NCBI GenBank assembly: GCA_001983475.1
Contig: LJHD01000038.1
Location: forward strand, 1-51,626
Source: Candidatus Epulonipiscium fishelsonii
Lineage (GTDB): Bacteria; Bacillota; Clostridia; Lachnospirales; Cellulosilyticaceae
Length of the DNA stretch: 51,626 nt
Direction of reading: 5' to 3'
Shown: in pieces, positions 5,070 through 39,473 of the stretch
Layout: every line of letters begins with the position of its first letter
How positions within the stretch are numbered: position 1 is the stretch's first letter
Position numbers and translations under genes: made by a program
Notes under the pieces: generated by a model
What the model was told of the DNA's origin: nothing
Seen by the model: only the letters and a program-made list of their open reading frames with translations
Database searches by the model: none

Positions 5070-5137
5070 ATAATATTTTTTATCACAGACCACATTATTT
5101 ATCTGTGGTCTATTTTGATGTGATTATTTTTTTGAAA

Positions 5138-5163
5138 CATAGAGTACTATCCTTTTATATAGT
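5138..5163 (+). repeat. Family-B interspersed repeat copy (AGAGTACTATCCTTTTATATAG)
   Basis: The same roughly 24-nt sequence occurs at 39610-39632 (reverse) and 41934-41959. A degenerate copy is at 41640-41665. Confidence 0.7.
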
Positions 5164-5283
5164 TTATAATAAATTAAAAAAGTACTCTGAAATAGTTGTA
5201 ATTAAATTTGATGTGTTGCGAAGCTCCTGTTGGAGCTCCCAACCTCTTGTTTCATCTTGAGTACATTTATAAACAGCTCATTA

Positions 5284-7097
5284 TTATACTTCCTCAAATT
5301 GACTGTTATACAAGTCTGCATAAAATCCATTTTGCTTTAATAATTCAACATGAGTTCCATTTTCAATTATATTCCCATCTTTCATAACTAAAATTAAATC
5401 TGCATTACGAATTGTAGATAGTCTATGAGCAATTATAAAAGAAGTCTTTCCTTTAGATAAACTGTCCATAGCTTTTTGTATTAAAATTTCTGTTCTAGTG
5501 TCCACTGAGCTTGTTGCCTCATCCAAAATAAGTAACTCTGCATTTTTCACCATAGCTCTAGCAATTGTAAGAAGTTGCTTTTCTCCCACAGACATAGTAG
5601 CTTGACTTAAAATAGTATCATATCCATTCGGAAGTGTTTTAATCATATGGTGTATTCCAACAGATTTACAAGCATTTACAATTTGTTCATCAGTAATATC
5701 AACTTTATTATAAGCTATATTTTGCTTTATAGTTCCCTCAAAAAGCCATGTATCTTGTAATACCATAGCAAATATATTATGAAGCTGTTCTCTTGTAATC
5801 TTAGAAATTGGAATTCCATCAAGAAGGATTTCACCACCATTTAGCTCATAAAAACGCATAAGCAAATTTACTAAAGTTGTTTTTCCTGCTCCTGTTGGTC
5901 CAACAATAGCAACTTTTTGTCCTGCTTTTATCTCTATACTAAAATTTTTAATAATAATTTTATCTTTATTATAACCAAACTCAACATTTTTAAATGTTAC
6001 ATCTCCTTTGATAGTTTTTCATCAGATATTTCTGGTGAAAGTTCTTCCTCTTCTAAAATAGCAAACACTCGTTCACTTGCTGCCACTGCAGATTGTAAAG
6101 TTGTTGCAGCTTGTGCTAAAGTTGATAGTGGTTGTGTAAACAGACGAATATATACCATAAATGCAACAATTGTCCCAAACTCAGTTTTGCCTTCAATTAC
6201 CAAAAATGCTCCTATTATACAAACTACAACATAAGATAAATTTCCTACAAATCCCATAACAGGCATCATAAGTCTTGAAATATATTGAGCTTTCCAAGAA
6301 TTTAAAAATAACTTATTATTCATTTCTTCAAATGTTTTTATTTCTTGAATTTCTGCATTATAAGCCTTTATTACAGTGTGTCCTGTAAATGTCTCTTCAA
6401 TATGGCCATTTAAGACTCCTAATTGAGCTTGTTGCTGCCTGAAAAATTTTTGAGAATTTTTTATTATTATTCCCATCAACATAAATCCTGCCCATGTTGC
6501 TACAAATCCTCCTATAGCCATAGTCCAGTTGGTCCAAAGCATAAGTACTAATGAACCTATAAAAGTCAATAGACCACTTAAAACTGAAGATAGACTTTGA
6601 TTTAAACTAGTTCCAATTGTATCAACATCATTTGTTACTCGGCTTAGTATATCACCATATGTTTTAGTGTCAAAATATGAAAGTGGTAACTTATTTAGTT
6701 TAAGTACAATATCTTTCCTTAATCTCTTAGATATTCTTTGAGAAATTGTTGTCATAATAAATGCTTGGGCATACCCAAATACTAAACTTAATACATATAT
6801 GGTAAGTAAAAATTTTGATATTTGTACTATTTCTTGTGTATCAATGGTACTATTCATTCCATGTGTAATCAGATTTGTCATCTCACTTAATTTATTTGGG
6901 CCAATGAGAGAAAATATTACTGCTATACTTGACAATATTAAAGCTATAATTACTGCAGGAATGTATTTTCTTGAATATATAACCAGTTTATTTAAACCTT
7001 TTTTAAAATCTTTTGGCTTTTCCCCTATAGCAATTCTTCCTGGTCCGCCACCCATATTTTGTGGTGGTTTTTGTTTAGCTTCATTTAACTTGCTCAT
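5284..7097 (-). pseudogene. ABC exporter half-transporter (fused TMD-NBD), interrupted by a 1-nt frameshift in a homopolymer
   Basis: The TMD ORF (7097 down to 5997) ends ...SDEKLSKEM*. The next frame reads KTIKGDVTFKNVEFGYNKDKIIIKNFSIEIKAGQKVAIVGPTGAGKTT (Walker A) and continues into ORF 5284-5865 (LSVGEKQ signature, Walker B ILDEATS). The switch must occur in the A5 run (plus-strand T5 at 6015-6019). Start at 7097 behind AAAGGAGG. Confidence 0.8.
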
Positions 7098-15398: not shown

Positions 15399-18300
15399 TT
15401 ATTTTCCAGCCACTTCAAATTGTGGACCGTCATCTTCTTCCTCTTCTTCTTCTTCTACTTCAGGTTCCTCTTCTTCCTCTTCTTCTACTTCAGGTTCCTC
15501 TTCTTCCTCTTCTTCTACTTCAGGTTCTTCTTCTTCCTCTTCTTCTACTTCAGGTTCTTCTTCTTCCTCTTCTTCTACTTCAGGTTCCTCTTCTTCCTCT
15601 TCACGTTCTTCTTCTTCACGTTCTTGCTCTTCTCTTTCACGTTCCTCTTCTTCTTCTCTTTCACGTTCCTCTTCTTCTTCTCTTTCACGTTCTTCCTCTT
15701 CTTCTCTTTCACGTTCTTCCTCTTCTTCTCTTTCACGTTCTTCCTCTTCTTCTCTTTCGCGTTCTTCTTCAGACATCATTGAAATAGAAGGTATTGCAGG
15801 TACTTGCATATTCCATCCAGCATTTATTGATTGTGCACTTCTACCTTTTGTTCCAGCTTGAATAGCATTTTCAAAATCACCAATAGCACTTTCTAAAGCT
15901 ATTACCGCAGCATCTAACTCATCAGCAGTTTTATTTTTATCAGCTAAAACTTTTTTAGCATTACTAATAGCAGTACTCAATGCTGTAAAGGCACTGTCTG
16001 GAGCCCAATCATCACGTGGGTCAACATTTGCCCCATCTATACTTCTTATAATACCTCTTGTTGCGTCTCCTGCGTCATCAATTGCATCTTCTAAATCAGC
16101 TCTTGCTGCATCTACATCTTCTTTAGTTCCCTCTTGTGCTATGTCGTTAAATGCGGTTATTGCTGCCTCTAATGCAGATGTTTCAGCAATAATTGCCCCT
16201 GGTGTAACTGATTGTTCTTTATATAGATCATATGCTTTATCATAAGCCATATCTAAAGCCTTCAAAGGAGCTATTGATCCATCAGTAGTTGAATAAGGTA
16301 CCCATTTGTATCTGCTTGAAATATCTGTTCCACCATATCTACTTGTTTTTGTAGAAAGCAATGGTTTAACTAAATTTATTTGAGCTAACAAATCAACTTT
16401 TGCACTTACTGTCTCACCTTTTAATCCAGGTGCACATGCTGCTACAAATAAAGCTTGAGCACTTGTTAAAGAATCTTTAGAAGCTGTTAAGTCTGCTACT
16501 GTTGATTCTTCTTCTTCCCATACTTCCATTGCAACATCAAGTGAATCTTCAAATTTATCAAGATCTTTTGATGTACTCCATTGTAAAGACGCATCCACAT
16601 CTGTACCATTTACAGAGCTTTCTCTAAACGCAGTTGGAGCTATAAGAGCTTTTGAACTTGTAATCAAGGTACCTAAATCTGTATATAATTGGTCAAAGGT
16701 TTCTTTTGTTCCGTGACCGTTTCTGGTAGCAGCAGCGTTTATTGTTGCTGTCGCTGTAGCTAAAGTTGCTGTTGCTTTGGTTAAAGAAGCAGCATTTTTA
16801 GAGGAACTGATATATGCTTTTGCAGCTGTATCAATAGCTTTTTCATATGAACTAAATTGAGATGGTGTTACCCATAGGTTTGCCTCAACTACATCTGTTC
16901 CTGTTCCAAGTTCACTTTCGGAAATAATTGCAGATGGACTTGTAGCAGCACCAGTTCCCACTGTTTTAGATACATTAATTAATGCGTAAGCTGTATTAAC
17001 TGCTTCGCTTAATGCTGTTTCTGCAGGTATAAATGTTCCCAATCCCGCTTTTCTTACTGCTTCAAAATCTCTAAGTATTTCTTTTAGCTCTTCATTAGCT
17101 TCATCAATTTTTTCTTTTGTTGTTTTACCTTCTGCAGCCAAGTCTGCAACCGCTTGTGCTGCTTTGATTCCCGCTTCTAATTCTTCCATCATATCTTCAT
17201 CTACCCAGAATGCACCTGTTTCTACATCTTCACCTTTTAGTGCACTTACTGTAGTATAAGAACTTCCACTAGTAACATATGCTTGAGCTGAAGTAATAGT
17301 TGCAGTTATATCTGTAGTACCATCGCCTAGACCTAATTTAACTTTTGCAGTTTCTAGAATAACTACGTCTGTTGAAAGTGATCCATCAGTTGTTCCAAAA
17401 AACACTTTACTTGCTGCTTGTAATTCTTTTTCTGCATCTTTAATTTCATCTAGTTCTAATTTATATAATTTAGCTGTAGCTTCTTCTTTTTTAGCTGTAG
17501 CTACCGCAGATTTTACTTTACCTATATCAGATGAAAGTGCCCAATATTCAGCCTCTGCTACACCGACTCCACCCAAGGAATTCGCTGCAACACTAGTTAC
17601 ATTAGTTTCAATATTTTTTATTAATGTTGAAAAGCTTCCTGAAGTACTTACTAGTGCTTCAAATTCTGTTTGTTGCCCACTTGTTACTAATTTTTCAAAG
17701 GCAATTTTTTTAGTTGCTAATGTTGAAATTGCAGATTTTATTGATGTTAAATTTGCTTTAGGATTTGTATATACTTCAATTGCATCTTCAATTACATCGT
17801 TATAATCTTCAATATCATCTGGTTCTGCCCATTTTTTGGAATTTTCCACGTCAAATCCAAAGTGTTCATTTTCAAAATAAAGTTGAGTACCAGAAACTGT
17901 AGTTGCATAACTTCCTGTTGAAGTTATTTGTGGTCTTCCAATTGCATCTTTTTCAGCATTAATATTGTTAAGTAAAGTATCTTTGCTAGTTAAAAGCTCA
18001 CCTTTAGTAGTTGTTTCTTGAATGCCAAGTGTAAATGCTGATGTTGCTAAAGTTAAAGAATTTGTTGTTCTCTCTACAATAGCTTTGGTTGATGCTTTGT
18101 GATCTCTTACGTCTATAGCATCTTCGATTGCTTTTTTATAACTATCCATAGTGAATTTAGTTACCCATTCTATATTTGTATCAAGTTCAGCTCCATTTAC
18201 ACTTACTACTACAGAAGTGGTAGAATCAGTAGCTGCAACTATTTGATCATGTAAAACTTTTTTTATATTACTTATTGGTTCAGCGCTAATAGTTGTAAAG

Positions 18301-20027
18301 GTAGTTGTTGCATTTTCTATTTCTGCTTTTGCTGCTTGAATATCCTCTAATGGCATTATAGCTATTGATTTTAATGCTTCTGTTGCTACTTCAATTGCTT
18401 CTTCAAACATTTCTTGCTCTTCTTCAGTTACCCATTTTAATACATCTTCTGCTGGTGGATCAACTTTTGGATCTGTTAGCAAGTCTAATCCATCATATTC
18501 ACTAACTAAAATTTTCTTATTTGTTAAATTTTCTTTTGCTGCCTCAATTGCAGCTTCCAAAGCATCCCCTTCGGCACCAAATGTATCTTTAAGACCAGTT
18601 GATAAACCAGCCAATGTTGTTTGTAAAGCTGTTAAATTAGCTATTTCAATAGAAATTTGGGTTGTTGTTGCTTCTTTATCATCATAAACATCTTGAGCTG
18701 TTTCAATTATTCCTTTATAAATCTCATATGGTCCTTTTGTCGTCCACTTATCGCTAGAACTTACATCTGCACCATTTGCACTTAATTTTACCCCTTCAAA
18801 TATGTCTCTAGTCTCATCAAGTTCGGTTTCTAATTCTGCTTTAGCGGTTTTAATATCTGAAGCTGCTCCAGTTCCATTTGCAGCAATTGCATCTGTAAAA
18901 GCAGTAAGTGCAGTTTCTAAAGCTAAAGTCGCTCCTGATGTAATATCTACAGAGTTTGCTTTTGCTTCTTTAACTGTATCATGTTTTGAATATACGCTTT
19001 CTGCTACTTTAAGTGCTGATTCTAATGCCTTATACTGTTCTTCTGTTACCCAAGTAGTCCATGCATCCATTCCATCTTCACTTACCATTGGAGGATTTAC
19101 TTCTATTGGATCAGTTTCAACACCATTTGCTCTTTGAGGAGCTTCAACTGCTGGAGCGGAAGTACGTTCAGTTTGTGGAATTTCCGTTAAGTAAGCTTTA
19201 ACCTCTGATATTAAATTAAACATACCATCTTGAGCCACTACCAAAGTTCCTTGGCCAGATGTTATTTCAATTGCAAAATGTGAAGTTGCTGCACTTAATT
19301 CATTATAAGCATCTACTAAAAATTGTTCTGCTGGAACATCAGCAACCGTTGATATTGAAGCAAATGATACTGGATTAACTGGGGCATCTCCATAATTTAT
19401 TTTTTTAGACTTTTCATCGTATACATCTTGAGCTTCTTCAATTGCTTCTTCAAATGTATCCCATGCGTCTTGAGTTACCCATGTTTCACTAGTAGTAATT
19501 TCAATACCGCCAATTTCACTTATGTTTGGTGCTACTGGAGCTCCTTCACCAATACCAAGTAATCCTTTAGCCTCTGTTATTTTTTCATATAACTGATTCA
19601 CTGCGTTTTGGTATACATCATTTATTCCAGCTTTCTTTAAAGCCTCATATTTTGCAGTTAAATCTGTTAGTTCAGTGATTGCATCTTCAATCATTTCTAC
19701 AATTTCATTTACTGAATCATCATAATCTTCTTTGTCATCCATTGGAACCCAAAAATTAGTATTATTTATATCTGCTCCTTTTTCATCACTGCCCAAAACT
19801 TGGTCTCTTAATTCAATTGCTGTCACAAGCAAGGCATCAATTTCTACCGCTGCTGATGATACTGTTGCAATATCATAATTTCCCATTGGCGACATATATG
19901 ATGTCGCTCCCCCATTTCGTTGCATACTATACATCCCATACTCTGCTGCAGATGTTATAATTGGTGTTGTAGTAGCAATTGTTGCCAATGCTAATGCTAA
20001 TCTTTTTCTGAATTTGTTAATAGCCAT
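15399..20027 (-). CDS. Giant secreted repeat protein (1542 aa) with helical FIVAR-like modules and a C-terminal Glu/Arg low-complexity tail
   Basis: Signal-peptide-like N-terminus MAINKFRKRLALALATIATTTPIITSAAE. At least 13 modules of the type (G/A)xD(V/I)...W(V/A)Txxxxxx(F/Y)xxAIxxAxxVY. Tail (RER-EEEEE)n, then (PEVEEEEEEE)n, ending DDGPQFEVAGK. RBS CAGGGGGAAG. Confidence 0.85.
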   Translation of the reverse strand: MAINKFRKRLALALATIATTTPIITSAAEYGMYSMQRNGGATSYMSPMGNYDIATVSSAAVEIDALLVTAIELRDQVLGSDEKGADINNTNFWVPMDDKEDYDDSVNEIVEMIEDAITELTDLTAKYEALKKAGINDVYQNAVNQLYEKITEAKGLLGIGEGAPVAPNISEIGGIEITTSETWVTQDAWDTFEEAIEEAQDVYDEKSKKINYGDAPVNPVSFASISTVADVPAEQFLVDAYNELSAATSHFAIEITSGQGTLVVAQDGMFNLISEVKAYLTEIPQTERTSAPAVEAPQRANGVETDPIEVNPPMVSEDGMDAWTTWVTEEQYKALESALKVAESVYSKHDTVKEAKANSVDITSGATLALETALTAFTDAIAANGTGAASDIKTAKAELETELDETRDIFEGVKLSANGADVSSSDKWTTKGPYEIYKGIIETAQDVYDDKEATTTQISIEIANLTALQTTLAGLSTGLKDTFGAEGDALEAAIEAAKENLTNKKILVSEYDGLDLLTDPKVDPPAEDVLKWVTEEEQEMFEEAIEVATEALKSIAIMPLEDIQAAKAEIENATTTFTTISAEPISNIKKVLHDQIVAATDSTTSVVVSVNGAELDTNIEWVTKFTMDSYKKAIEDAIDVRDHKASTKAIVERTTNSLTLATSAFTLGIQETTTKGELLTSKDTLLNNINAEKDAIGRPQITSTGSYATTVSGTQLYFENEHFGFDVENSKKWAEPDDIEDYNDVIEDAIEVYTNPKANLTSIKSAISTLATKKIAFEKLVTSGQQTEFEALVSTSGSFSTLIKNIETNVTSVAANSLGGVGVAEAEYWALSSDIGKVKSAVATAKKEEATAKLYKLELDEIKDAEKELQAASKVFFGTTDGSLSTDVVILETAKVKLGLGDGTTDITATITSAQAYVTSGSSYTTVSALKGEDVETGAFWVDEDMMEELEAGIKAAQAVADLAAEGKTTKEKIDEANEELKEILRDFEAVRKAGLGTFIPAETALSEAVNTAYALINVSKTVGTGAATSPSAIISESELGTGTDVVEANLWVTPSQFSSYEKAIDTAAKAYISSSKNAASLTKATATLATATATINAAATRNGHGTKETFDQLYTDLGTLITSSKALIAPTAFRESSVNGTDVDASLQWSTSKDLDKFEDSLDVAMEVWEEEESTVADLTASKDSLTSAQALFVAACAPGLKGETVSAKVDLLAQINLVKPLLSTKTSRYGGTDISSRYKWVPYSTTDGSIAPLKALDMAYDKAYDLYKEQSVTPGAIIAETSALEAAITAFNDIAQEGTKEDVDAARADLEDAIDDAGDATRGIIRSIDGANVDPRDDWAPDSAFTALSTAISNAKKVLADKNKTADELDAAVIALESAIGDFENAIQAGTKGRSAQSINAGWNMQVPAIPSISMMSEEEREREEEEEREREEEEEREREEEEEREREEEEEREREEEEEREREEQEREEEEREEEEEEPEVEEEEEEEPEVEEEEEEEPEVEEEEEEEPEVEEEEEEEPEVEEEEEEEDDGPQFEVAGK
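15420..15775 (-). repeat. In-frame coding tandem repeats (30-nt PEVEEEEEEE units and 24-nt REREEEEE units)
   Basis: Direct tandem periodicity is visible in the DNA. The plus-strand ORFs 15344-15787 and 15420-15782 are mirror artefacts of this tract. Confidence 0.9.
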
Positions 20028-20521: not shown

Positions 20522-20965
20522 TTATACTACAGGTTCTTCCTCCTCTTCTTCTTCTTCTACTTCAGGTTCTTCCTCCTCTTCTTCTTCCTCTTCTTCAGGT
20601 TCATCTTCCTCTTCTACTTCTTCCTCTTCTTCAGCCTCTTCACGTTCTTGTTCTTCTCGTTCTTGCTCTTCTCGCTCTTGTTCTTCTCGTTCTTGTTCTT
20701 CTCGTTCTTGCTCTTCTCGTTCTTGTTCTTCTCGTTCTTGCTCTTCTCGTTCTTGTTCTTCTCGCTCTTGTTCTTCTCGTTCTTGCTCTTCTCGCTCTTG
20801 TTCTTCTCGTTCTTGCTCTTCTCGTTCTTGTTCTTCTCGCTCTTGTTCTTCTCGTTCTTGCTCTTCTCGTTCTTGCTCTTCTCGTTCACGTTCCTCTTCT
20901 TCACGTTCCTCTTCTTCTCGTTCCTCTTCTTCTCGTTCCTCTTCTTCACGTTCTCGTTCTTCTTC
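20522..20965 (-). repeat. In-frame coding tandem repeats (15-nt REEQE units and E-rich units)
   Basis: CTCTTCTCGTTCTTG-type 15-nt periodicity. ORFs 20489-21019(+) and 20614-20949(-) are frame or mirror artefacts. Confidence 0.9.
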
Positions 20966-23900
20966 AGATGTTATTGCAAATATAGAACTATCTCCAATAG
21001 GCTCTCCATCCATTATTAATGCAGAAATATCTAAGATTGAATCTTCAAACGGATCATTTCCTGACGTAGGTTCCGTATCAGTTCTTCCAGAGTGATATTC
21101 AAACCATTGAGTTGCATTATAAAGAACACTTCTTATCCCAGCAGTAGTAGTTGTTGAACCAATAGCCTCATATCTTTTGCCAAGTACAGCTGCTGTTGGT
21201 TTGCTTTCTGTCACAGTACCATCATTATTAGGAGTATACATTGTTCCTTCTACAGATGCATATCTATTGATATAAACAGCATTTGCTTGATCAATTATTT
21301 CTTCAAAGTCTCTAATTGCAAACGGAGATAGATAATATTTGCCATCTTCTTTACCACTAATACTTGTGCTTGAAATAGTGTAACGTAACAATAACTTAGC
21401 TGCATCCATTTCTTTTTTCAAATCAGCTTTTGCTAAAAGTGTGTCTTCTTTATTTCCTTTATAAGCATAGGCATCAACTTCGTCTATTAAAAGTTTTAAA
21501 TCATTTGTTACTTTTAGCAATTCTTGTTCAGCATAAGCTCCCTTTCTAGCTCTGCTCATTGAATTTGCTATGTTATATGCCGCACTGATTTCTTCTATTA
21601 TTGTTTTTCCACTTGCTCTATCTAAACTACTTACCAAGGTATGAGTATTTGAAACATCTGATCCAGTCCCTAGTGGTGTTATTTTTATCATAGCCATAGT
21701 GTTTTTTGCCCTTGCTACCAAGCTATTTAATGCTGCTATAGTTCCATCTATATCTGTTGCTCCAGCAGTATAATATTGTGGTGCATAATCTCCCCTATCT
21801 GCATAGTCTCCATCAGCATTTGCATCAAGACCAACAAATTTGTCGTTTGCTAATTTTAAAGCAGTAATTGCTTTTTCTAAGTTAATTTGTGTAATATCAA
21901 TATCTGAAAATGCTTTCATTGCAGCATTAATTGCATTTGTAAATGTAGCAGTGTTAGATTTAGATGCCCAAGCTGTTCCAGCATCTACATCAGTTCCTTT
22001 TAGATCACTAATTTGGAATGTTGTTCCACCATCACTAATGTCAAACCCAGTACCATCTGCATTAATAGCTGCTATTTTTCCAATTAATGCATGTGAATCT
22101 ATAATTAAAGTACTAATAGTAGTTCTTAAACCATCAAGATTATCTTTAGTTCCTGCTCCAGATTTTATCCCTGCTGCAAGCCAAGTTGCAATGTTCTTTT
22201 CAAGAGTTTCAATATATTTACCCATAACAGTTAAATCATAACTTGGATTTGAGTAATATCCTCTGTGTAATTTAAGAGTATTTTCCATTCCACTAAATAC
22301 CGCAGCACTCATCCATAAATACTTACCTTCAACGTCAACTCCGTTGTTATAAACACTTTTTCTAATACCTTCCATTGCAGCAGGTATTTTATCTTTAATT
22401 TCCTGTGTAATAAAGTCTTTATCAGCAAATGCTAATTGTAAATCTGTAATTGCTGTTCCAGCTACAGTGGTAAAGTCTGTAGAAGAATCAATTACATCAT
22501 AATTTGGTAATCCAACAATATCATTCACAAAGTTCATTAACGTAATATACTCTGTTTTCACTGGTGCAAGTAAATCTGATCCATTCATAGCAATATCAAT
22601 ATATTGTTTGAACACGTCTACAGCTTTTTGTAAGTTTACTTGAGCTGTGTTAAAGTATGACATATTGAACATTCCTGCTGGTACATATGTTGGAAGTAAT
22701 AATCCACCAGTTGTACTTCCTGTATATCTAAGCAATAAAGCTTCTGCTGTTTCAATTGCTTTTTTGAATGCATCATAATACTTAGCATCAACCCATTTAT
22801 CTCCTGCGGCAACATCTTGACCGTTTATTGCACTACGTTTAACAGTTAAAAGAAGTGCATTTGCAGCTTCAACGTCTAACACTAGTGCATCGTCTTCTCT
22901 TTCTTTAAATCCTTTTTGAAGTTTTCCTACAACCTCTGGTGTGTCACCTGAAGCTGGTACTCCAAAGAAAATATCATATGCTGCTTTGAAAGTATCATAT
23001 GCTGCTTTAAATTGATCATGAGTTAATTTATTTATTGCTTCATTTTTAAGTGCAAGGTCAGCGGCTTTAATTGCGTTATTTATAGCACCAATTGAAGCTG
23101 CATCAGTCCAATCCACAGTGTTCTCAATATCTGCTCCGTAGTATCTTGATATTAAAATTTTGTATCCTTTACCCCAAATAATGTTAGCTGGATCATTATA
23201 TACAGCTGTTGCTGCAGTATTATATAAAGTTTCAAATTCTGTTCTTAATGTTGCTGCAGATGTTGCTCCAACAGCTGTCTTAGCTGTTAAATCTAAGAAC
23301 TTAGTAATCTCTGTTTGTAAAGTAACAATTGCTTTTGATATAGTCGCATCTGTTGGTCTTGTAGATTTCCAAGCAGTTTCTGCAACTGCAATTTTTGATA
23401 TGAATGTTCTCATTTCAGCTTCTGTTACCCATTTATCTCCTGCATTTAAAGGTTCTTGAGTAGTAATTTCTACACCATTAGAATCAGTGGTAACTGCAAG
23501 TTTATTTTTACCATTGTCTATACTTGTATAAACAGAAGTTGTTACTTCTGGAGTTTTATCATCAATATATTCAACATCTAAATGAGTATTTCCTATAATA
23601 AGAGCTTTTGCTTCATTTACTTTATCTGATAATTCATTCATTTTTGGAACAAGTGTACCAACACCAGGTGCAGTTATAAATTTAGATTTTGCTAATTCAA
23701 GATCTATAATTGCTTTTTCAACAGTTCCACTTTTTTCAGCTGGACCAGGATATATTTTTTGATTGTTTAATGCAACAATAGCTTTATCAACTGCTGAGTC
23801 AAATGCAGCTTTAACTGCAGGTGTTGCCCAAAATTCATCAGGTTTAACTTCAACTCCACCTACATTACTTACTTTAGTATTTCTTAATTCACTAGCATAT

Positions 23901-26524
23901 CCACTATTTCCATCTTCTCCATAAATTAAGTTAAATAATCTAGATTTAACATCAGTTGGAGTTTTTGCTGCACTGTTAAAGGCAATAACTGCTGCATTTA
24001 ATGCTTCCATTGCTCTTTCAACTTCACTTGGTAAAGTAGTATTTCCTACTCCAAGTTTTTCATTTTTAAATTCTTGTGCAACAAATATAGCATCAATTAA
24101 AGCTTGCATATTGTCTTTAGAAATATATTTCACTGAATCTGTTGTTACCTCATAAGTTTTTATTGAACCTGTTGTTGTTCCGTCAATATTAGTTACTGTT
24201 GTTGTTGTTGTAAGTAGGTCCAGACCTTCATATATGCTAATTGAAGCTGTTGTTGTTAGAGCCATTGCTTTCTCAAGTAAAGCATTAAATTCAGTTGTAT
24301 CTTCCTCTTTTCCTTCTGAGCCTGAACTCATATAAGATTGTTTAAATTCGCTAGTTGCAGCATATAATTCTTTTGCTTTTTGTTCAATATATTTTAATCT
24401 GTCTTTATACTCAAAAGGTTCCCCTGATGGTAAAATTTGATTTTCAATGTAAAGTGGAGTTGTAACTTCTTGGTCTTTAATCTCTTCAATTGCTTGAACT
24501 ATTTCAACATAAGCTTTATAAGTTTCTGTAGCCACCCATTGTGATGGAGACGTTACATCTGCACCTTCAATTGAGCTTGGTTTTACTGTAAATGTTGAAT
24601 CATCTGTTGGTCCAGATAATACACCATTTTCAACTTTAGCATCACCAATTTCAGCTCTTGCTGCAGCAACTACGCTTAACAAGCCTTTAGATTTTAAATC
24701 CGTCTCTACACCCATTACTTCTGCATAATCTTCTTTAAAGCCTTCTTCTATTTTAGTCGCGAACTCTAGTGTTGCATTTTCAATAGCTATAACACCATTT
24801 TCATAATCTAATAAATCATGTGCACCAGTTGTTGCATCATAAAGAGTTTTAGCTGATGTAATAGCTGTATCCAATTTAGTCCAATCTATTGTTGATACCC
24901 ACATATAAGCTTCTGAAGTTTGTGTACCATGCTTATCATCTTGTTGTACTACAAGACTTATATCAGCATTTGCAACTCCACTAGTTGTGTATCCTCTTTC
25001 CAGTTGAGCCTCAAAGATAGCTTTTTGTAATTTTTCTTTTTCTTCAATAATTTCAGGCATTTGCCCTTCTTCATAAGAATCAATAAATTTATTTAATGCT
25101 CTTTTAAGAATATTAATTGCTTTATCAATAGTCTCGGTTGTTTCATGACTTGTTTCACTTTCATCAGTTGGAGCAAAAACTCCATCAACTATACCGTCAT
25201 TAGCCTCAAAAGCAGCTTCAGCTATAGCTACAGCGGCCGTTAAAATATCTACATCTGCTGTAGTTACCCAAGAAGCCCACAAATCTCTTCCTTCAATATC
25301 ACTTACTAAAACATGAGTAACAGTTGCTGTTGTAACACCTTCAGGGAAAGTATCGTCTTCTTCTTTAGCCAAATAATATTCATTGTTTGGATCAATATAA
25401 TAAGGATGGCCACTTGTGTTATATAAAAATCTTGTATTATCTTCATCAGTATCCTCGGTAATAGTAAGATCCGCAGTTGTAACATTATCTATCCATTCTT
25501 TATTAGCTGTTGTAACATTTAAGTGTATATTTGAAACGTCTATTAAACTTTCAAGTCCTTCTCTTGCAATAACAATTTCACCATCTTGCATTTGTCCAGC
25601 AAATGCATCTTTAAATGCCAAAGCAGCACCAATTGCAGTATCCACTGTGTTTGCTACATATGTATCACCAGATGTTTGGACTCCATATAAATTATTAGCC
25701 ATTTCAAGAATTTTTTCTCTAGAGATATCAGGATTCGCTACAGGTATGCTTCTTGCTATTAATCCAGGTGAAGTTGACCTATATACTTTAGTTAAATAGT
25801 CTTTTGCTTCATCAATTGCCACTTTAAATGCATCATAATCTGCTTTGCTTATCCAACCTTTACCTTTTTCAACATCTTTTCCATCAGTTGAACTTATCAT
25901 ATATTCGCCATTTGTTGTTGCTTGTGTAATAGCTGATTCTGTTGTTGCAATAAGTTCTTCTGCTGCAAGTATAGCTCTATATAATCCATCAACATGTCCT
26001 TGATATGATACAGAGATACCTGTTGTACGACTTAATTCAGTGGTAATTGGAGTAATTGCTGCATTTACTGCTGTCATATCCATTCCTATTGTTTCATCTG
26101 ATCCTTGAACAATAGAAGCTCTTGTTGTACTTACGTCTGAATCTGCATAGTTATTATTTAATTTAATCAATGCATTTTGAGCAGCTTCAATGATAGCTAA
26201 AAGTTCTGTAACTTTTGAATCATATGTAGTTTTCATTTCTGTAGTGGTCCAATGATATGCTTGATCTGTTGCTTTTCCATCAACATCTGAACCATCGCTA
26301 TCACTTGCAATTGTACCTCCTACCAAATTATGTGCATTAATAATTGCATCTTCTAAGTGGCCAAAATCATAAGTAGTAATCTCCGTTATATCTGTTATAT
26401 CTGTATGTTCCTGAGTAATATTAAAATCATGATTAAATTGTTCAGCCGACACCATTATCGGTGTTGCACTAGTTATCATTGCCATAGCTAGTGACAATCT
26501 TCTACTAAATTTTTTGTTTGCCAT
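20522..26524 (-). CDS. Giant secreted repeat protein (about 2000 aa), paralog of 15399-20027, with a C-terminal Glu/Arg/Gln low-complexity tail
   Basis: Start moved to ATG 26524 (MANKKFSRRLSLAMAMITSATPIMVSAEQ) behind CAGGGGGAAG, the same RBS context as the paralog. It has the same W-x-T...F-x-x-A-I modules. Tail (EEEER)n, then (EQERE)n for about 20 units, then EEEEEPEV-type units. Confidence 0.85.
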   Translation of the reverse strand: MANKKFSRRLSLAMAMITSATPIMVSAEQFNHDFNITQEHTDITDITEITTYDFGHLEDAIINAHNLVGGTIASDSDGSDVDGKATDQAYHWTTTEMKTTYDSKVTELLAIIEAAQNALIKLNNNYADSDVSTTRASIVQGSDETIGMDMTAVNAAITPITTELSRTTGISVSYQGHVDGLYRAILAAEELIATTESAITQATTNGEYMISSTDGKDVEKGKGWISKADYDAFKVAIDEAKDYLTKVYRSTSPGLIARSIPVANPDISREKILEMANNLYGVQTSGDTYVANTVDTAIGAALAFKDAFAGQMQDGEIVIAREGLESLIDVSNIHLNVTTANKEWIDNVTTADLTITEDTDEDNTRFLYNTSGHPYYIDPNNEYYLAKEEDDTFPEGVTTATVTHVLVSDIEGRDLWASWVTTADVDILTAAVAIAEAAFEANDGIVDGVFAPTDESETSHETTETIDKAINILKRALNKFIDSYEEGQMPEIIEEKEKLQKAIFEAQLERGYTTSGVANADISLVVQQDDKHGTQTSEAYMWVSTIDWTKLDTAITSAKTLYDATTGAHDLLDYENGVIAIENATLEFATKIEEGFKEDYAEVMGVETDLKSKGLLSVVAAARAEIGDAKVENGVLSGPTDDSTFTVKPSSIEGADVTSPSQWVATETYKAYVEIVQAIEEIKDQEVTTPLYIENQILPSGEPFEYKDRLKYIEQKAKELYAATSEFKQSYMSSGSEGKEEDTTEFNALLEKAMALTTTASISIYEGLDLLTTTTTVTNIDGTTTGSIKTYEVTTDSVKYISKDNMQALIDAIFVAQEFKNEKLGVGNTTLPSEVERAMEALNAAVIAFNSAAKTPTDVKSRLFNLIYGEDGNSGYASELRNTKVSNVGGVEVKPDEFWATPAVKAAFDSAVDKAIVALNNQKIYPGPAEKSGTVEKAIIDLELAKSKFITAPGVGTLVPKMNELSDKVNEAKALIIGNTHLDVEYIDDKTPEVTTSVYTSIDNGKNKLAVTTDSNGVEITTQEPLNAGDKWVTEAEMRTFISKIAVAETAWKSTRPTDATISKAIVTLQTEITKFLDLTAKTAVGATSAATLRTEFETLYNTAATAVYNDPANIIWGKGYKILISRYYGADIENTVDWTDAASIGAINNAIKAADLALKNEAINKLTHDQFKAAYDTFKAAYDIFFGVPASGDTPEVVGKLQKGFKEREDDALVLDVEAANALLLTVKRSAINGQDVAAGDKWVDAKYYDAFKKAIETAEALLLRYTGSTTGGLLLPTYVPAGMFNMSYFNTAQVNLQKAVDVFKQYIDIAMNGSDLLAPVKTEYITLMNFVNDIVGLPNYDVIDSSTDFTTVAGTAITDLQLAFADKDFITQEIKDKIPAAMEGIRKSVYNNGVDVEGKYLWMSAAVFSGMENTLKLHRGYYSNPSYDLTVMGKYIETLEKNIATWLAAGIKSGAGTKDNLDGLRTTISTLIIDSHALIGKIAAINADGTGFDISDGGTTFQISDLKGTDVDAGTAWASKSNTATFTNAINAAMKAFSDIDITQINLEKAITALKLANDKFVGLDANADGDYADRGDYAPQYYTAGATDIDGTIAALNSLVARAKNTMAMIKITPLGTGSDVSNTHTLVSSLDRASGKTIIEEISAAYNIANSMSRARKGAYAEQELLKVTNDLKLLIDEVDAYAYKGNKEDTLLAKADLKKEMDAAKLLLRYTISSTSISGKEDGKYYLSPFAIRDFEEIIDQANAVYINRYASVEGTMYTPNNDGTVTESKPTAAVLGKRYEAIGSTTTTAGIRSVLYNATQWFEYHSGRTDTEPTSGNDPFEDSILDISALIMDGEPIGDSSIFAITSEEEREREEEEREEEEREEEEREEEEREREEQEREEQEREEQEREEQEREEQEREEQEREEQEREEQEREEQEREEQEREEQEREEQEREEQEREEQEREEQEREEQEREEAEEEEEVEEEDEPEEEEEEEEEEPEVEEEEEEEEPVV

Positions 26525-26577
26525 TTTATCTTCCCCCTGATAGTAATTTCTTCCATAATAATTTCTTAACAAGAAGT

Positions 26578-26604
26578 ATATCGTCATTTTTTTTTATTAT
26601 TTTA
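26578..26604 (-). promoter_or_regulatory. Sigma-D/FliA-like promoter candidate for the 2000-aa gene
   Basis: The minus strand reads TAAA-ATAATAAAAAAAAATGA-CGATAT, the same TAAA-N17-CGATAT architecture as at 20071-20097. The -10 region GACGATAT matches GCCGATAT at 7 of 8 positions. Confidence 0.4.
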
Positions 26605-28178: not shown

Positions 28179-28249
28179 AGCGGGTGATGGGAATCGAACC
28201 CACGTAACCAGCTTGGAAGGCTGGTGTTCTACCATTGAACTACACCCGC
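28179..28249 (-). tRNA. tRNA-Gly (anticodon UCC)
   Basis: The minus strand reads GCGGGTGTAGTTCAATGGTAGAACACCAGCCTTCCAAGCTGGTTACGTGGGTTCGATTCCCATCACCCGCT. Acceptor GCGGGTG/CACCCGC, anticodon stem CCAGC/GCTGG with loop CTTCCAA, T-arm GGGTTCGATTCCC. CCA is not encoded. ORF 28080-28292 is an artefact over it. Confidence 0.95.
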
Positions 28250-37016: not shown

Positions 37017-37039
37017 AAGGGTGAATACTGTTCACCCTT
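37017..37039. terminator. Bidirectional hairpin between convergent genes
   Basis: Stem AAGGGTGAA / TTCACCCTT. It overlaps the uvrB stop codon. Confidence 0.5.
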
Positions 37040-37377
37040 ATATTGAATTATATATTTGTTTTAAAGTTATAATAGTATCTCTTGTTTGAGCTGCATCTTC
37101 AAAACGTAGTTCCACCGCAAATTTTTTCATTCGTTTTTCTAAAGTTTTAATAGATTTTTCTAATTCTGATTTAGACATAGATTCAGGGTCTTTTTGTTCA
37201 AATAAATCTTTATTTGTTTCTTTAATAGATTTTGTAGCTACAATTAAGTCCCGTATATCTTTTTTTATAGTCTTAGGGATAATATCATGTTTAATGTTAT
37301 ATTGATTTTGAATTTCACGCCTTCTTTTAGTTTCTTCAATTGCAGCATTCATTGATCTAGTTATCTTATCTGCATAC
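37038..37377 (-). CDS. uvrB: Excinuclease ABC subunit B, exon 2 (C-terminal region including the UVR domain)
   Basis: YADKITRSMNAAIEETKRRREIQNQYNIKHDIIPKTIKK matches Bacillus UvrB YADTITKSMEIAIQETKRRRAIQEEYN. The C-terminal FEDAAQTRDTI is the UVR motif. The first base completes a split ATG codon. Confidence 0.85.
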
Positions 37378-37830
37378 CTGAACCTCCTACCCATAAAGAT
37401 GTGGAGGTTGTCGTTCACAATAAGACGCTACTCCTATTGCAGTTCTCTTAGAACTTCTTTAGCTTTCACTAAAGCACAGACTATATCTTCTTCTTCACCA
37501 TTACGTGTTAAGAGCCACCCACTTCCACCATCAATCACTTATGGTGTACGACCCTCAAGAGGTCTAGTCGTTGAAGTTTCTCCTGTTTGGAGCTTACCTG
37601 CTCATTACCCATTGCTATAGTACTTAGGATTTAACCATATACCATCCAATCAATTTTTTCTGCTTTCGCAACATTCACGTTTAGTTATATTTCATACTTG
37701 CGTTGTAGTTTGATTGGCTTTAGGGGTTTCAAGCAATTCAAGTGGTATATTGCAACGGTCAAGCCGTTGTCTACGTACTAGTTTCCCAATACGCTTACTG
37801 GATTGAGGAGGCTTTTCCTGCCCTTATCCT
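37378..37830 (-). ncRNA. ORF-less group I intron inserted in uvrB (boundaries accurate to a few nt)
   Basis: On the minus strand: P-like GAATTGCTTGAAACCCC (37723-37739) pairs with Q-like TAGCAATGGG (37608-37617). R-like TTCAACGACTAGACC is at 37561-37575 and S-like GAAGATATAGTCTG at 37477-37490, giving P7 ACUA/UAGU. Several 6-7 bp peripheral hairpins are present. The exon ends in U and the intron ends in G. There is no long sense ORF. Confidence 0.75.
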
Positions 37831-39473
37831 ATAATAACTTTCCCATTGGCATTTCTTGCACAGCGACCAATAGTTTGAATTAAAGAAGTTTCTGATCTTA
37901 AAAAACCTTCTTTATCAGCATCAAGAATTGAAACTAAAGAAACTTCGGGAATATCAAGACCTTCTCTTAATAAATTTATTCCAACTAGCACATCAAATAC
38001 ACCTAGCCTTAAATCTCTAACAATTTCAACTCTTTCTAATGTATTTATATCTGAGTGTAAATATTTTACTTTTACGCCCATTTCAGCCATATAGTCAGTT
38101 AGGTCTTCAGACATTCTTTTTGTTAGAGTGGTAATTAATACTTTATCCCCTTTCTGAGCTGTCAAATAAATTTCGTGCAATAAATTATCTATTTGGCCTT
38201 TTATGGGGCGAACATCTATTATGGGGTCAAGTAGCCCAGTTGGACGTATTAGTTGTTCTGCAATAGTGACAGAATGTTCCAGTTCGTATTGAGCAGGGGT
38301 TGCAGATACAAAAAGCATTTGATGTATTTGTTGTTCAAACTCATCAAAGCGAAGAGGTCTATTGTCTAATGCAGAAGGCAATCTAAATCCATAATCAACC
38401 AACACAGTTTTCCTTGCTCTATCTCCATTATACATGCCTCTAATTTGAGGGATTGTAATATGTGATTCATCCACAATAATTAAAAAATCATCTGGGAAAT
38501 AGTCTAGTAATGTAAATGGTGTGCTGCCTTCTTCTCTATCTGCAAGATGACGTGAATAGTTTTCAACTCCAGAACAATAGCCCATTTCTCTAAGCATCTC
38601 TATATCGAAATTTGTACGTTGTTCTAGTCTTTGTGCTTCAAGGAGCTTATCTTGTTGTCTTAGTTCTTTAAGTTGTTCTTCCAATTCCAATTCTATTTTT
38701 TTAATAGCTAGGTTAAGTTTTTCTTGTGAAACAGAATAATGAGATGCTGGAAAAATTGCAACATGCTTACGATACCCAATTATAGTTCCTGTAACGATAT
38801 CTATTTCTGAAATTCGTTCAATTTCATCTCCAAAAAACTCAATTCGCATAGCTTGCCCGCCACCTTCAACAGGAATAATTTCGACTGTATCTCCTCTTAC
38901 TCTAAATGTACCTCTTGAAAAATCGTGATCGTTTCTATCATATTGAATGCTAACTAGCTTTTTCAATACGTCATCTCTTTCTATAATCATTCCTTCTCTT
39001 AAAGAAACAACTTGATTGGCATATTCCTCTGGGTCTCCTAAGCCATAGATACAAGATACACTTGAAATTACTATTACATCTTTTCTTTCCATCAAAGCTG
39101 TTGTTGCTGAATGTCGCAACTTTTCGATTTCTTCGTTGATACTCGCATCTTTTTCGATGTAAGTATCACTATGGGCAACGTATGCTTCTGGCTGATAATA
39201 ATCATAATATGACACAAAATATTCTACAGCATTATCTGGAAAAAATTCTTTAAACTCACTATATAGTTGAGCTGCTAAAGTTTTATTATGTGCAATTATT
39301 AAGGTTGGCTTTTGTATATTTTGAATTATGTTTGCCATTGTAAATGTTTTACCCGAGCCTGTAACTCCTAATAATGTTTGAAATTTATTTCCTTCTGTAA
39401 GACTGCTAGTTAATTCGGTAATTGCTTGAGGTTGGTCACCCATTGGTTTATAATTTGATTGTAATTTGAACAT
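37831..39473 (-). CDS. uvrB: Excinuclease ABC subunit B, exon 1
   Basis: [15 protein letters not shown] (Walker A), DESH and helicase motifs through [15 protein letters not shown]. The ORF runs into an in-frame stop only 7 nt inside the insertion. Confidence 0.9.

Follow-up and report, generated by a model that had tools for sequence, protein, structure and literature searches.

IStrons combine a group IA2 intron with a transposon of the IS200/IS605 or IS607 type in one chimeric element (Tourasse 2014, PMC4227781). They reach their sites by transposition beside a short T-rich motif and occupy many unrelated genes (PMC4227781), and in the group A class the transposon ends are also the splice sites. 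Group A elements are defined by insertion 3' of TTGAT, ATTAT or TTTAT and by a 3' end in TCAG (PMC4227781). Their cargo follows P9.2, behind a GAACGA-type motif and within an inverted-repeat (IR) stem of 6-10 bp balanced in GC content, and similar subterminal palindromes, the binding sites of TnpA, are present at both ends, the 5' one being part of the P1 stem (PMC4227781). Here we consider an insert of 453 nt (37378..37830) that splits uvrB in contig LJHD01000038.1 of Candidatus Epulonipiscium fishelsonii (assembly GCA_001983475.1); the whole stretch of 51,626 nt that was analysed is called the window below. The insert is read as a self-splicing group IA2 ribozyme that was originally a group A (CdISt1-like, IS200/IS605-family) IStron and is now reduced to a remnant without an open reading frame (ORF), a reading given a probability of about 80%. 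An earlier note, made from the letters of the window, had described an ORF-less group I intron in uvrB; the group I assignment and the placement stand, but its probable IStron origin, which would set it apart from classical free-standing or homing introns, was missed.

The gene and the insert lie on the minus strand, as do all features of them given below. Exon 1 (37831..39473, 1643 nt), delimited from the ORF list and the spliced translation, holds codons 1-547 and two of the three bases of codon 548; its end is just past helicase motif VI (QTIGRCARN), and the split falls within helicase domain 3 of UvrB. Reading on past exon 1 adds I and G and then meets an in-frame TAA of the insert (37826..37824, intron nucleotides 5-7), which terminates the ORF 37824..39473. 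The UvrB frame restarts at 37377, where (G)TATGCAGATAAG gives YADKIT, and exon 2 (37038..37377, 340 nt with its stop) supplies residues 548-660, its first G completing the codon ATG. When 37831 is joined to 37377, ATG is restored, the junction reads GKVIMYADKIT, and a coding sequence of 1983 nt yields a protein of 660 aa. The spliced protein scores 1087.8 bits against the NCBIfam UvrB model NF003673 (cut-off 743) and aligns without a gap over the junction with UvrB of B. caldotenax (2fdc, GHVIMYADTIT). The stop, the restart some 450 nt later, the rebuilt codon and the length of the joined protein are all as the earlier note had given them.

The boundaries of the insert are fixed by comparison with an empty site, for which the earlier note had pointed to related genomes. 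The closest species in a genome scan with the spliced protein, Ca. Epulonipiscium fishelsonii (L001), is 91% identical in amino acids and 87.6% in nucleotides, and its uvrB is uninterrupted. Its empty site, GTTATTAT/GTATGCAGAT, within the longer context GGAAAAGTTATTAT/GTATGCAGATAGG, equals the joined exons exactly, with no target duplication, and a blastn alignment of this locus to the window breaks precisely at 37831/37377. The boundaries cannot slide because the bases flanking each of them differ: the insert begins with A where exon 2 begins with G, and it ends with G where exon 1 ends with T. The GC content of the insert is 41% against 32% for the exons. Other intron-bearing uvrB alleles were not found among the 80 closest genomic loci or the 120 closest protein clusters, all of which are of about 660 aa and uninterrupted, and none of the 396 intron- or IStron-bearing loci examined encodes UvrB. 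An apparent 830-nt insert in uvrB of Streptococcus suis (L074) proved to be a joining artefact of tblastn, the gene being intact.

Rfam identifies the insert as a group I intron. In a focused scan of 700 nt, a check that had been proposed earlier, RF00028 (Intron_gpI) matches 37457-37814 over the full model (1-253), with 65.6 bits against a gathering cut-off of 50 and an E-value of 2.4e-16. Scans of the whole window at the gathering cut-off and at a permissive E-value reported a tRNA only and not the intron, the filters presumably being defeated by its long peripheral insertions. Such introns are probably under-counted, since they are missed by whole-contig Rfam scans and their exons are missing as called proteins; the 549-aa and 126-aa products of the split ORFs were not found as called proteins in the large protein collection searched. 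The last base is U in exon 1 and G in the insert (37378), as read before and as the splice-site rule of group I introns has it. The signature of subgroup IA2 is also present, namely, P7.1 and P7.2 between P7 and the 3' strand of P3, together with an extended P9 domain. The earlier statement that the intron lacks a homing endonuclease ORF is borne out: neither such an ORF nor a remnant of one, whether of the LAGLIDADG, GIY-YIG, HNH or His-Cys box type, is found in the insert, whose longest sense-strand open frame has 43 codons and whose peripheral loops are short structured RNA. No second intron core was found in the 51.6-kb window.

The structure was examined with a MAFFT/RNAalifold alignment of the window and 27 diverse relatives, with cargo removed and P3 added as a pseudoknot; counts of loci and relatives, here and below, are those among the matches listed. 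RNAalifold recovered P2, P2.1, P4, P5, P5a-c, P6, P7, P7.1, P7.2, P8, P9, P9.1, P9.2 and the IR stem. Covariation is seen in nearly every helix and in most pairs, among them 8 of the 9 in P2, 7 of 7 in P5a, 5 of 5 in P7.1, 7 of 9 in P9.2 and 4 of 4 in P3, and P7 is invariant over the 28 sequences. At the 5' end, UUAU of exon 1 (37834..37831) is the predicted partner of the internal guide sequence GUAAG (37794..37798), with G33 facing U(-1), and U34, A35 and A36 facing A(-2), U(-3) and U(-4), respectively. The P1 extension (37800..37829) comprises P1a (GGAU/AUCC) and P1b (GGGC/GCCU, capped by AGGAAAA), and a compensatory change is seen in P1a, which has G-C in the window and A-U in the closest relative, L342. 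P2 (8 bp, with a GAAA tetraloop) and P2.1 (6 bp) occupy 37753..37793, followed by the 5' strand of P3, P4, P5 and the long P5 extension with P5a-c (37599..37745), which were assigned by covariation and direct pairing. P4 is formed by UGCUUG (37735..37730) with UGAGCA (37604..37599) according to both Rfam and covariation; the P/Q pairing AUUGCU/AGCAAU given earlier is supported by neither and should be abandoned. Within the P5 extension are the tetraloop hairpin GCGAAAGC and a canonical 11-nt GAAA-tetraloop receptor (UAUGG, 37639..37635, and CCUAAG, 37628..37623). The catalytic core (37479..37598) consists of P6/P6a, J6/7 (UUCAACGACUAG), P7, P7.1 (37564..37550), P7.2 (37546..37526), the 3' strand of P3, P8 and J8/7 (GAAGAUAUAGUC), both P7.1 and P7.2 having covarying pairs. 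P7 pairs GACUA (37569..37565) with UAGUC (37483..37479), the helix already proposed from R- and S-like elements. P9, P9.1 and P9.2 (37417..37474) each have covarying pairs, and the GAAA tetraloop of P9 makes three in the element (L2, L5b and L9). All helices of the window have canonical pairs in the alignment except P2.1, which is out of register there and perfect when drawn from the window's own sequence. The window retains 151 of the 153 columns whose conservation is 93% or higher, as tnpB-bearing copies typically do, and with its helices all canonical the ribozyme looks intact.

The flanks of the ribozyme carry the marks of a group A IStron. The last five nucleotides of exon 1 are ATTAT (37831..37835), a group A target motif. 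GAACGA (37411..37416) follows directly after P9.2, the point where the insertion-sequence (IS) cargo of an IStron begins, and is equally placed in L222, L262, L307 and L342. It is followed by the IR stem AACCUCC/GGAGGUU (37378..37409; 7 bp, of which 4 are GC and 3 AU pairs) and the terminal UCAG, with the 3' splice-site G at 37378. The 3' end of the insert, GGAGGTTCAG, is followed in exon 2 by GTATGC; L262 and L307 have the same terminal decamer, L342 ends in GGGAGGTTCAG, and GAACGACAACCTC recurs unchanged in L222 and L342. The guide and the target co-vary over 70 unique relatives, GTCAG being found with TTGAT in 43 and GTAAG with NTTAT in 21 including the window, so that all 21 unique GTAAG-guide copies follow NTTAT. 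Three of the four group A hallmarks are thus seen in the window (the target, TCAG, and GAACGA with the IR stem). The fourth, the paired subterminal palindromes, is lacking: the left-end (LE) palindrome is replaced by the AGGAAAA loop, and the right-end (RE) palindrome is shortened and imperfect. Genes of the IS200/IS605 family are absent too, the window being without tnpB. Because the IS genes and the paired palindromes are missing, we class the element as an intron derived from an IStron, short of a complete one.

What has been lost is seen from the relatives. A clade-specific pattern finds at least 120 metagenome loci and at least 50 viral loci. A group I core stands just upstream of 135 among the 172 matches listed, and the right end is recognisable in 92 of these 135; the approximately 37 without a core are probably chance hits. 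In 88 of the 92, the cargo between the IR arms is 1.27-2.0 kb and includes tnpB. Two copies are shorter and retain both hairpins and an omega-RNA-like segment, namely, L350 (JABLTL010078994.1; 838 nt, truncated tnpB) and L314 (OCJI01000016.1; 339 nt, tnpB partly or wholly deleted). The L350 copy interrupts an enolase-like ORF. A third short cargo, of 372 nt in L378, was a false match of the regular expression, the true right end being 1738 nt downstream. The window copy has the smallest cargo among the 92 matches listed with a mapped right end, 31 nt without tnpB.

In the closest relatives among the matches listed, L342 (82.7% identity over 417 nt), L262 (80%) and L222 (76%), a large ORF follows directly on the 3' side of the ribozyme, between the IR arms. 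These ORFs contain the Pfam domain OrfB_IS605 and a Cas12f1-like TNB domain and are thereby identified as TnpB. A plasmid copy in C. difficile (80.5% identity) is likewise followed by an annotated IS200/IS605 tnpB, and further named matches come from plasmids of C. botulinum, phages c-st and D-1873, and plasmids of Enterococcus faecium, all taxa known for IStrons. L342 is itself from the lineage of the window: it is a full-length group A IStron at 5084-6944 of MDSQ01003385.1, from Epulopiscium sp. Nuni2H_MBin001, which indicates that full-length members of the sub-lineage live in the Epulopiscium group. It adjoins rfbA, follows TTTAT, and has near-identical LE and RE hairpins and a TnpB of 420 aa. 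L378 and L339, whose accessions belong to the neighbouring series MDSQ and MDSP, have more copies. The LE palindrome CCCACTGCTTTAGCTGTGGG of L342 sits within the stem GGGC...GCCCC, and at the corresponding position the window has only GGGC-AGGAAAA-GCCU. The LE transposase hairpin stands at the position of the P1 extension in the relatives compared (L342 and 20 others) and is deleted in the window. At the other end, the IR stem of the window encloses only 15 nt, ACAUCUUUAUGGGUA; these align, in shortened form, to the RE palindrome of L342 and are what is left of a right-end hairpin that has degenerated.

These comparisons bear on a rival proposal, in which the insert would be a free-standing group IA2 intron of the ordinary phage or Firmicute type, perhaps once with a homing endonuclease, that is kin to the progenitor of IStrons and was never part of a transposon. 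The contents of the P5 extension (GUUGCGAAAGC, an A-run and GGUUAAAUCCUAA) are common to 113 viral contigs, the core motif pair is widespread in viral contigs, and more than 100 phage introns share this extension and core without IStron features. Moreover, IStron-like solo introns are described in Fusobacterium and Turicibacter (Tourasse 2014, PMC4227781), and three introns of C. difficile 630 are free-standing (bioRxiv 10.1101/2023.11.20.567912). However, solo introns are told from former IStrons by the absence of the IR stem-loop and by a 3' terminus that does not match (PMC4227781), whereas the window has both the stem and the terminus (GAACGA, AACCUCC/GGAGGUU, UCAG) in a form near-identical to those of L222, L262 and L342. 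The alignment of the 15 nt within the stem to the right-end hairpin of L342 and the presence of tnpB in every closest relative among the matches listed also speak for descent from an IStron. Homology of the 3'-terminal 40 nt to the right ends of IStrons from many taxa, which would count against the free-standing reading, is largely in evidence already, and a free-standing origin appears quite unlikely. As separate observations on viral contigs, two or three group I introns lie within 1-2 kb in phage contigs L136 (139-1720), L154 (619-1744) and L196 (1795-2611), so that introns are densely packed in some phage genes, and a RAGATH-18 RNA match (55.8 bits, L132, 13007-13068) is found in a 134-kb viral contig that also has a related group I intron.

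The history that we propose for the uvrB insert begins with a full-length element, with ribozyme, tnpB/omega-RNA cargo and subterminal hairpins, which would have transposed as single-stranded DNA to the position 3' of the uvrB ATTAT. Later deletions would have taken the left-end hairpin and the entire cargo, the latter maybe between flanking AACC(T/C)C repeats. Each deletion would have left a closed RNA stem, P1b on the 5' side and the IR stem on the 3' side, and the remaining element is probably immobile and plain-intron-like. In the uvrB pre-mRNA, UUAU would pair with GUAA as P1, an external guanosine bound in P7 would attack after U(-1) at 37831, and the terminal G (37378) would then dock in P7 as the exons are ligated and the codon ATG is restored. 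These steps are the established chemistry of group I introns. Two sets of experiments on IStrons support the splicing competence of such a reduced element. Engineered IStrons without tnpA and tnpB splice scarlessly, and truncation of the right end stimulates splicing (bioRxiv 10.1101/2023.11.20.567912). Experiments with BcISt1 have reproduced an excision in which the ORF region is lost and the IR stem is all that remains of it (PMC4227781).

Several points weigh against this account, some of them concerning splicing and others mobility. P1 has just 4 bp, with an A/A mismatch beyond them. The nucleotides 5' of the guide offer no P10 with exon 2, although a missing P10 is expected for IStrons because their 3' flanks vary. 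One candidate, exon 2 GUAUGC (37371-37377) with GCGUAU at intron nucleotides 37-42 (37794..37789), lies on the wrong side of the guide, overlaps P2 and is probably a chance match as P10; the same two segments could form an alternative pairing before splicing. The case for splicing of the insert is drawn from its conservation. The in-frame TAA would be expected to halt ribosomes translating exon 1 ahead of the ribozyme. In the comparison with L001, the ratio of nonsynonymous to synonymous substitution rates (dN/dS) comes to 0.07 in exon 1 and 0.17 in exon 2, so both exons are under purifying selection; as the insertion may be of any age, these values are not strict proof of selection after it.

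If the insert does not splice, uvrB would be a pseudogene or would be expressed as two separate polypeptides. Splicing of uvrB is a prediction from sequence, and an in-frame ORF that can start with ATG or GTG (37038..37418) spans exon 2. Yet this ORF is without a Shine-Dalgarno sequence, the nearby AGGAGG being the conserved IR arm that precedes an out-of-frame ATG, and two separate polypeptides would divide the protein within helicase domain 3, directly behind motif VI. Neither exon has a frameshift or a stop, which together with the dN/dS values argues against both forms, and retention of 151 of 153 conserved positions and of all helices would be unexpected in decaying DNA. We regard a non-splicing insert as highly improbable.

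The claim of immobility rests on the missing LE hairpin, and the search for further copies and for tnpA covered the 51.6-kb window. Other assemblies also provide a point of doubt. In an independent assembly (L201, LNZN01000054.1, GCA_002007285.1), the first 226 nt of the insert are present at the same site with 99.6% identity, and then the contig ends. The contigs of L201 and L202 (MDSO01000564.1), which are 99.8-99.9% identical to the window and come from essentially the same organism, end at window positions 37605 and 37893, that is, inside the intron and 63 nt before it, respectively. These ends could reflect an element that is repeated in the genome, or a mixture of alleles that have the insert and alleles that lack it. 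Breaks of this kind, as at repeats, would suit a non-autonomous mini-IStron that still moves in trans by a TnpA encoded elsewhere, in the manner of miniature inverted-repeat (MITE) or palindrome-associated (PATE) transposable elements, as would the intact target motif and cleavage contexts (after ATTAT and after TCAG), the shortened right-end hairpin that remains, and the related full-length IStrons in Epulopiscium metagenome-assembled genomes. But the left-end hairpin needed for TnpA binding is gone and the right-end hairpin is degenerate, unlike in the truncated derivatives L314 and L350, which retain both. Moreover, the element is present in a single copy within the 51.6 kb, and the short form was not found again among the approximately 135 clade members listed. 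Continued movement in trans is thus unlikely, and an immobile remnant of a group A IStron remains the preferred reading.

Other features of the window are few. Upstream of uvrB, the search for an SOS (Cheo) box gave only a one-mismatch match at chance level. Two adjacent, very large ORFs are found on the minus strand (15399-20027, 1542 aa, and 20522-26587, 2021 aa), as is a single gene for tRNA-Gly (anticodon TCC; 28179-28249, minus strand, 76.6 bits).

The earlier note knew of no described case in uvrB, and the literature and supplements searched list neither uvrB nor any excinuclease gene as host of an IStron or group I intron. Its argument from rarity, which took introns in recA, nrdE and flagellin genes as comparators, used the wrong reference class for an element that is, in our reading, IStron-derived. 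Since IStrons transpose beside a short T-rich motif into many unrelated genes, an IStron in an unusual gene such as uvrB is to be expected and is not exceptional. The present locus would add uvrB and the Epulopiscium lineage to the IStron hosts, and it is reasonable to suppose that nucleotide-excision repair in this bacterium would depend on ribozyme splicing. With some reserve, we favor the view that the insert is a natural end-state of IStron decay, in which the LE hairpin, tnpB and the guide-RNA region have been lost and the ribozyme is fully conserved, fixed in uvrB of a giant, highly polyploid bacterium of the Epulopiscium lineage. As such it would be a natural counterpart of the engineered minimal IStrons used for the conflict between splicing and the TnpB guide RNA, and would illustrate how host selection pares a transposon to the part that keeps the host gene functional. 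If true, this view would also document one route by which transposons give rise to the ordinary group I introns without ORFs that occur in chromosomal genes of bacteria.

The locus also bears on how such introns are counted. In a comparison of giant bacteria (2023), group I introns were listed as absent in Ca. Epulopiscium viviparus and present in Thiomargarita (PMC10756260). The organism of the window is an Epulopiscium-clade species other than Ca. E. viviparus, and the miss in the whole-window scan shows how introns could be overlooked; if the present reading is true, the Epulopiscium lineage carries group I introns that default Rfam scans overlook. Standard annotation probably misses this intron as well, putting uvrB at risk of being labeled a pseudogene or two fragments.

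Among known systems, CdISt1 and other group A IStrons of C. difficile, E. faecium and Fusobacterium are the nearest (Braun 2000; Tourasse 2014, PMC4227781). Like the window element, they are IA2 introns with P7.1, P7.2 and P9.1/P9.2, and they share its targeting of TTGAT, ATTAT or TTTAT, GAACGA after P9.2, the short GC-balanced IR stem and TCAG (PMC4227781). The window element differs in having no tnpA, tnpB or omega-RNA region and in the deletion of the left-end subterminal palindrome. At 453 nt it is also shorter than the smallest IStron in the published survey (482 nt), which lists neither a host of the Epulopiscium clade nor uvrB as a host gene (PMC4227781). The truncated copies L314 and L350 belong to the same clade and share the GAACGA/IR/TCAG architecture and the partial or complete deletion of tnpB; unlike the window copy, both still have their LE and RE hairpins together with the omega-RNA-like segment, and their target is TTGAT with a GTCAG guide. 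Natural ORF-less IStron copies were reported earlier only for the group B element BcISt1 of emetic Bacillus cereus (PMC4227781). There also the whole ORF region is lost and the IR stem-loop kept, the loss occurring via direct repeats that flank the cargo, and the element is fixed at an orthologous locus and inherited vertically (PMC4227781). However, BcISt1 is of group B, with an IS607 serine recombinase, a GG-ending target, a 5' exon that ends in G, and a long AU-rich IR.

Two further systems resemble the window element in host gene or in host. In Ca. Thiomargarita nelsonii (Flood 2016, PMC4853749), likewise a giant, polyploid bacterium, the core housekeeping gene dsrA is interrupted by an ORF-less, phage-related IA2 intron that is also tied to a second kind of mobile element, although there it is a MITE inside the intron and not IS200/IS605. 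Its host is of another phylum, and IStron hallmarks are not reported for it (PMC4853749). Homing-type introns are known from phage genes and, in the Bacillus cereus group, from recA, nrdE and nrdF (Tourasse 2008, PMC2504315; Hausner 2014, PMC3984707). They too are group IA introns in protein-coding genes of DNA metabolism; they occupy conserved sites and some are ORF-less. They differ in their route to the gene, which is endonuclease-driven homing to one cognate site, whereas the lineage of the window element has IS ends and transposes at a motif of 4-5 nt.

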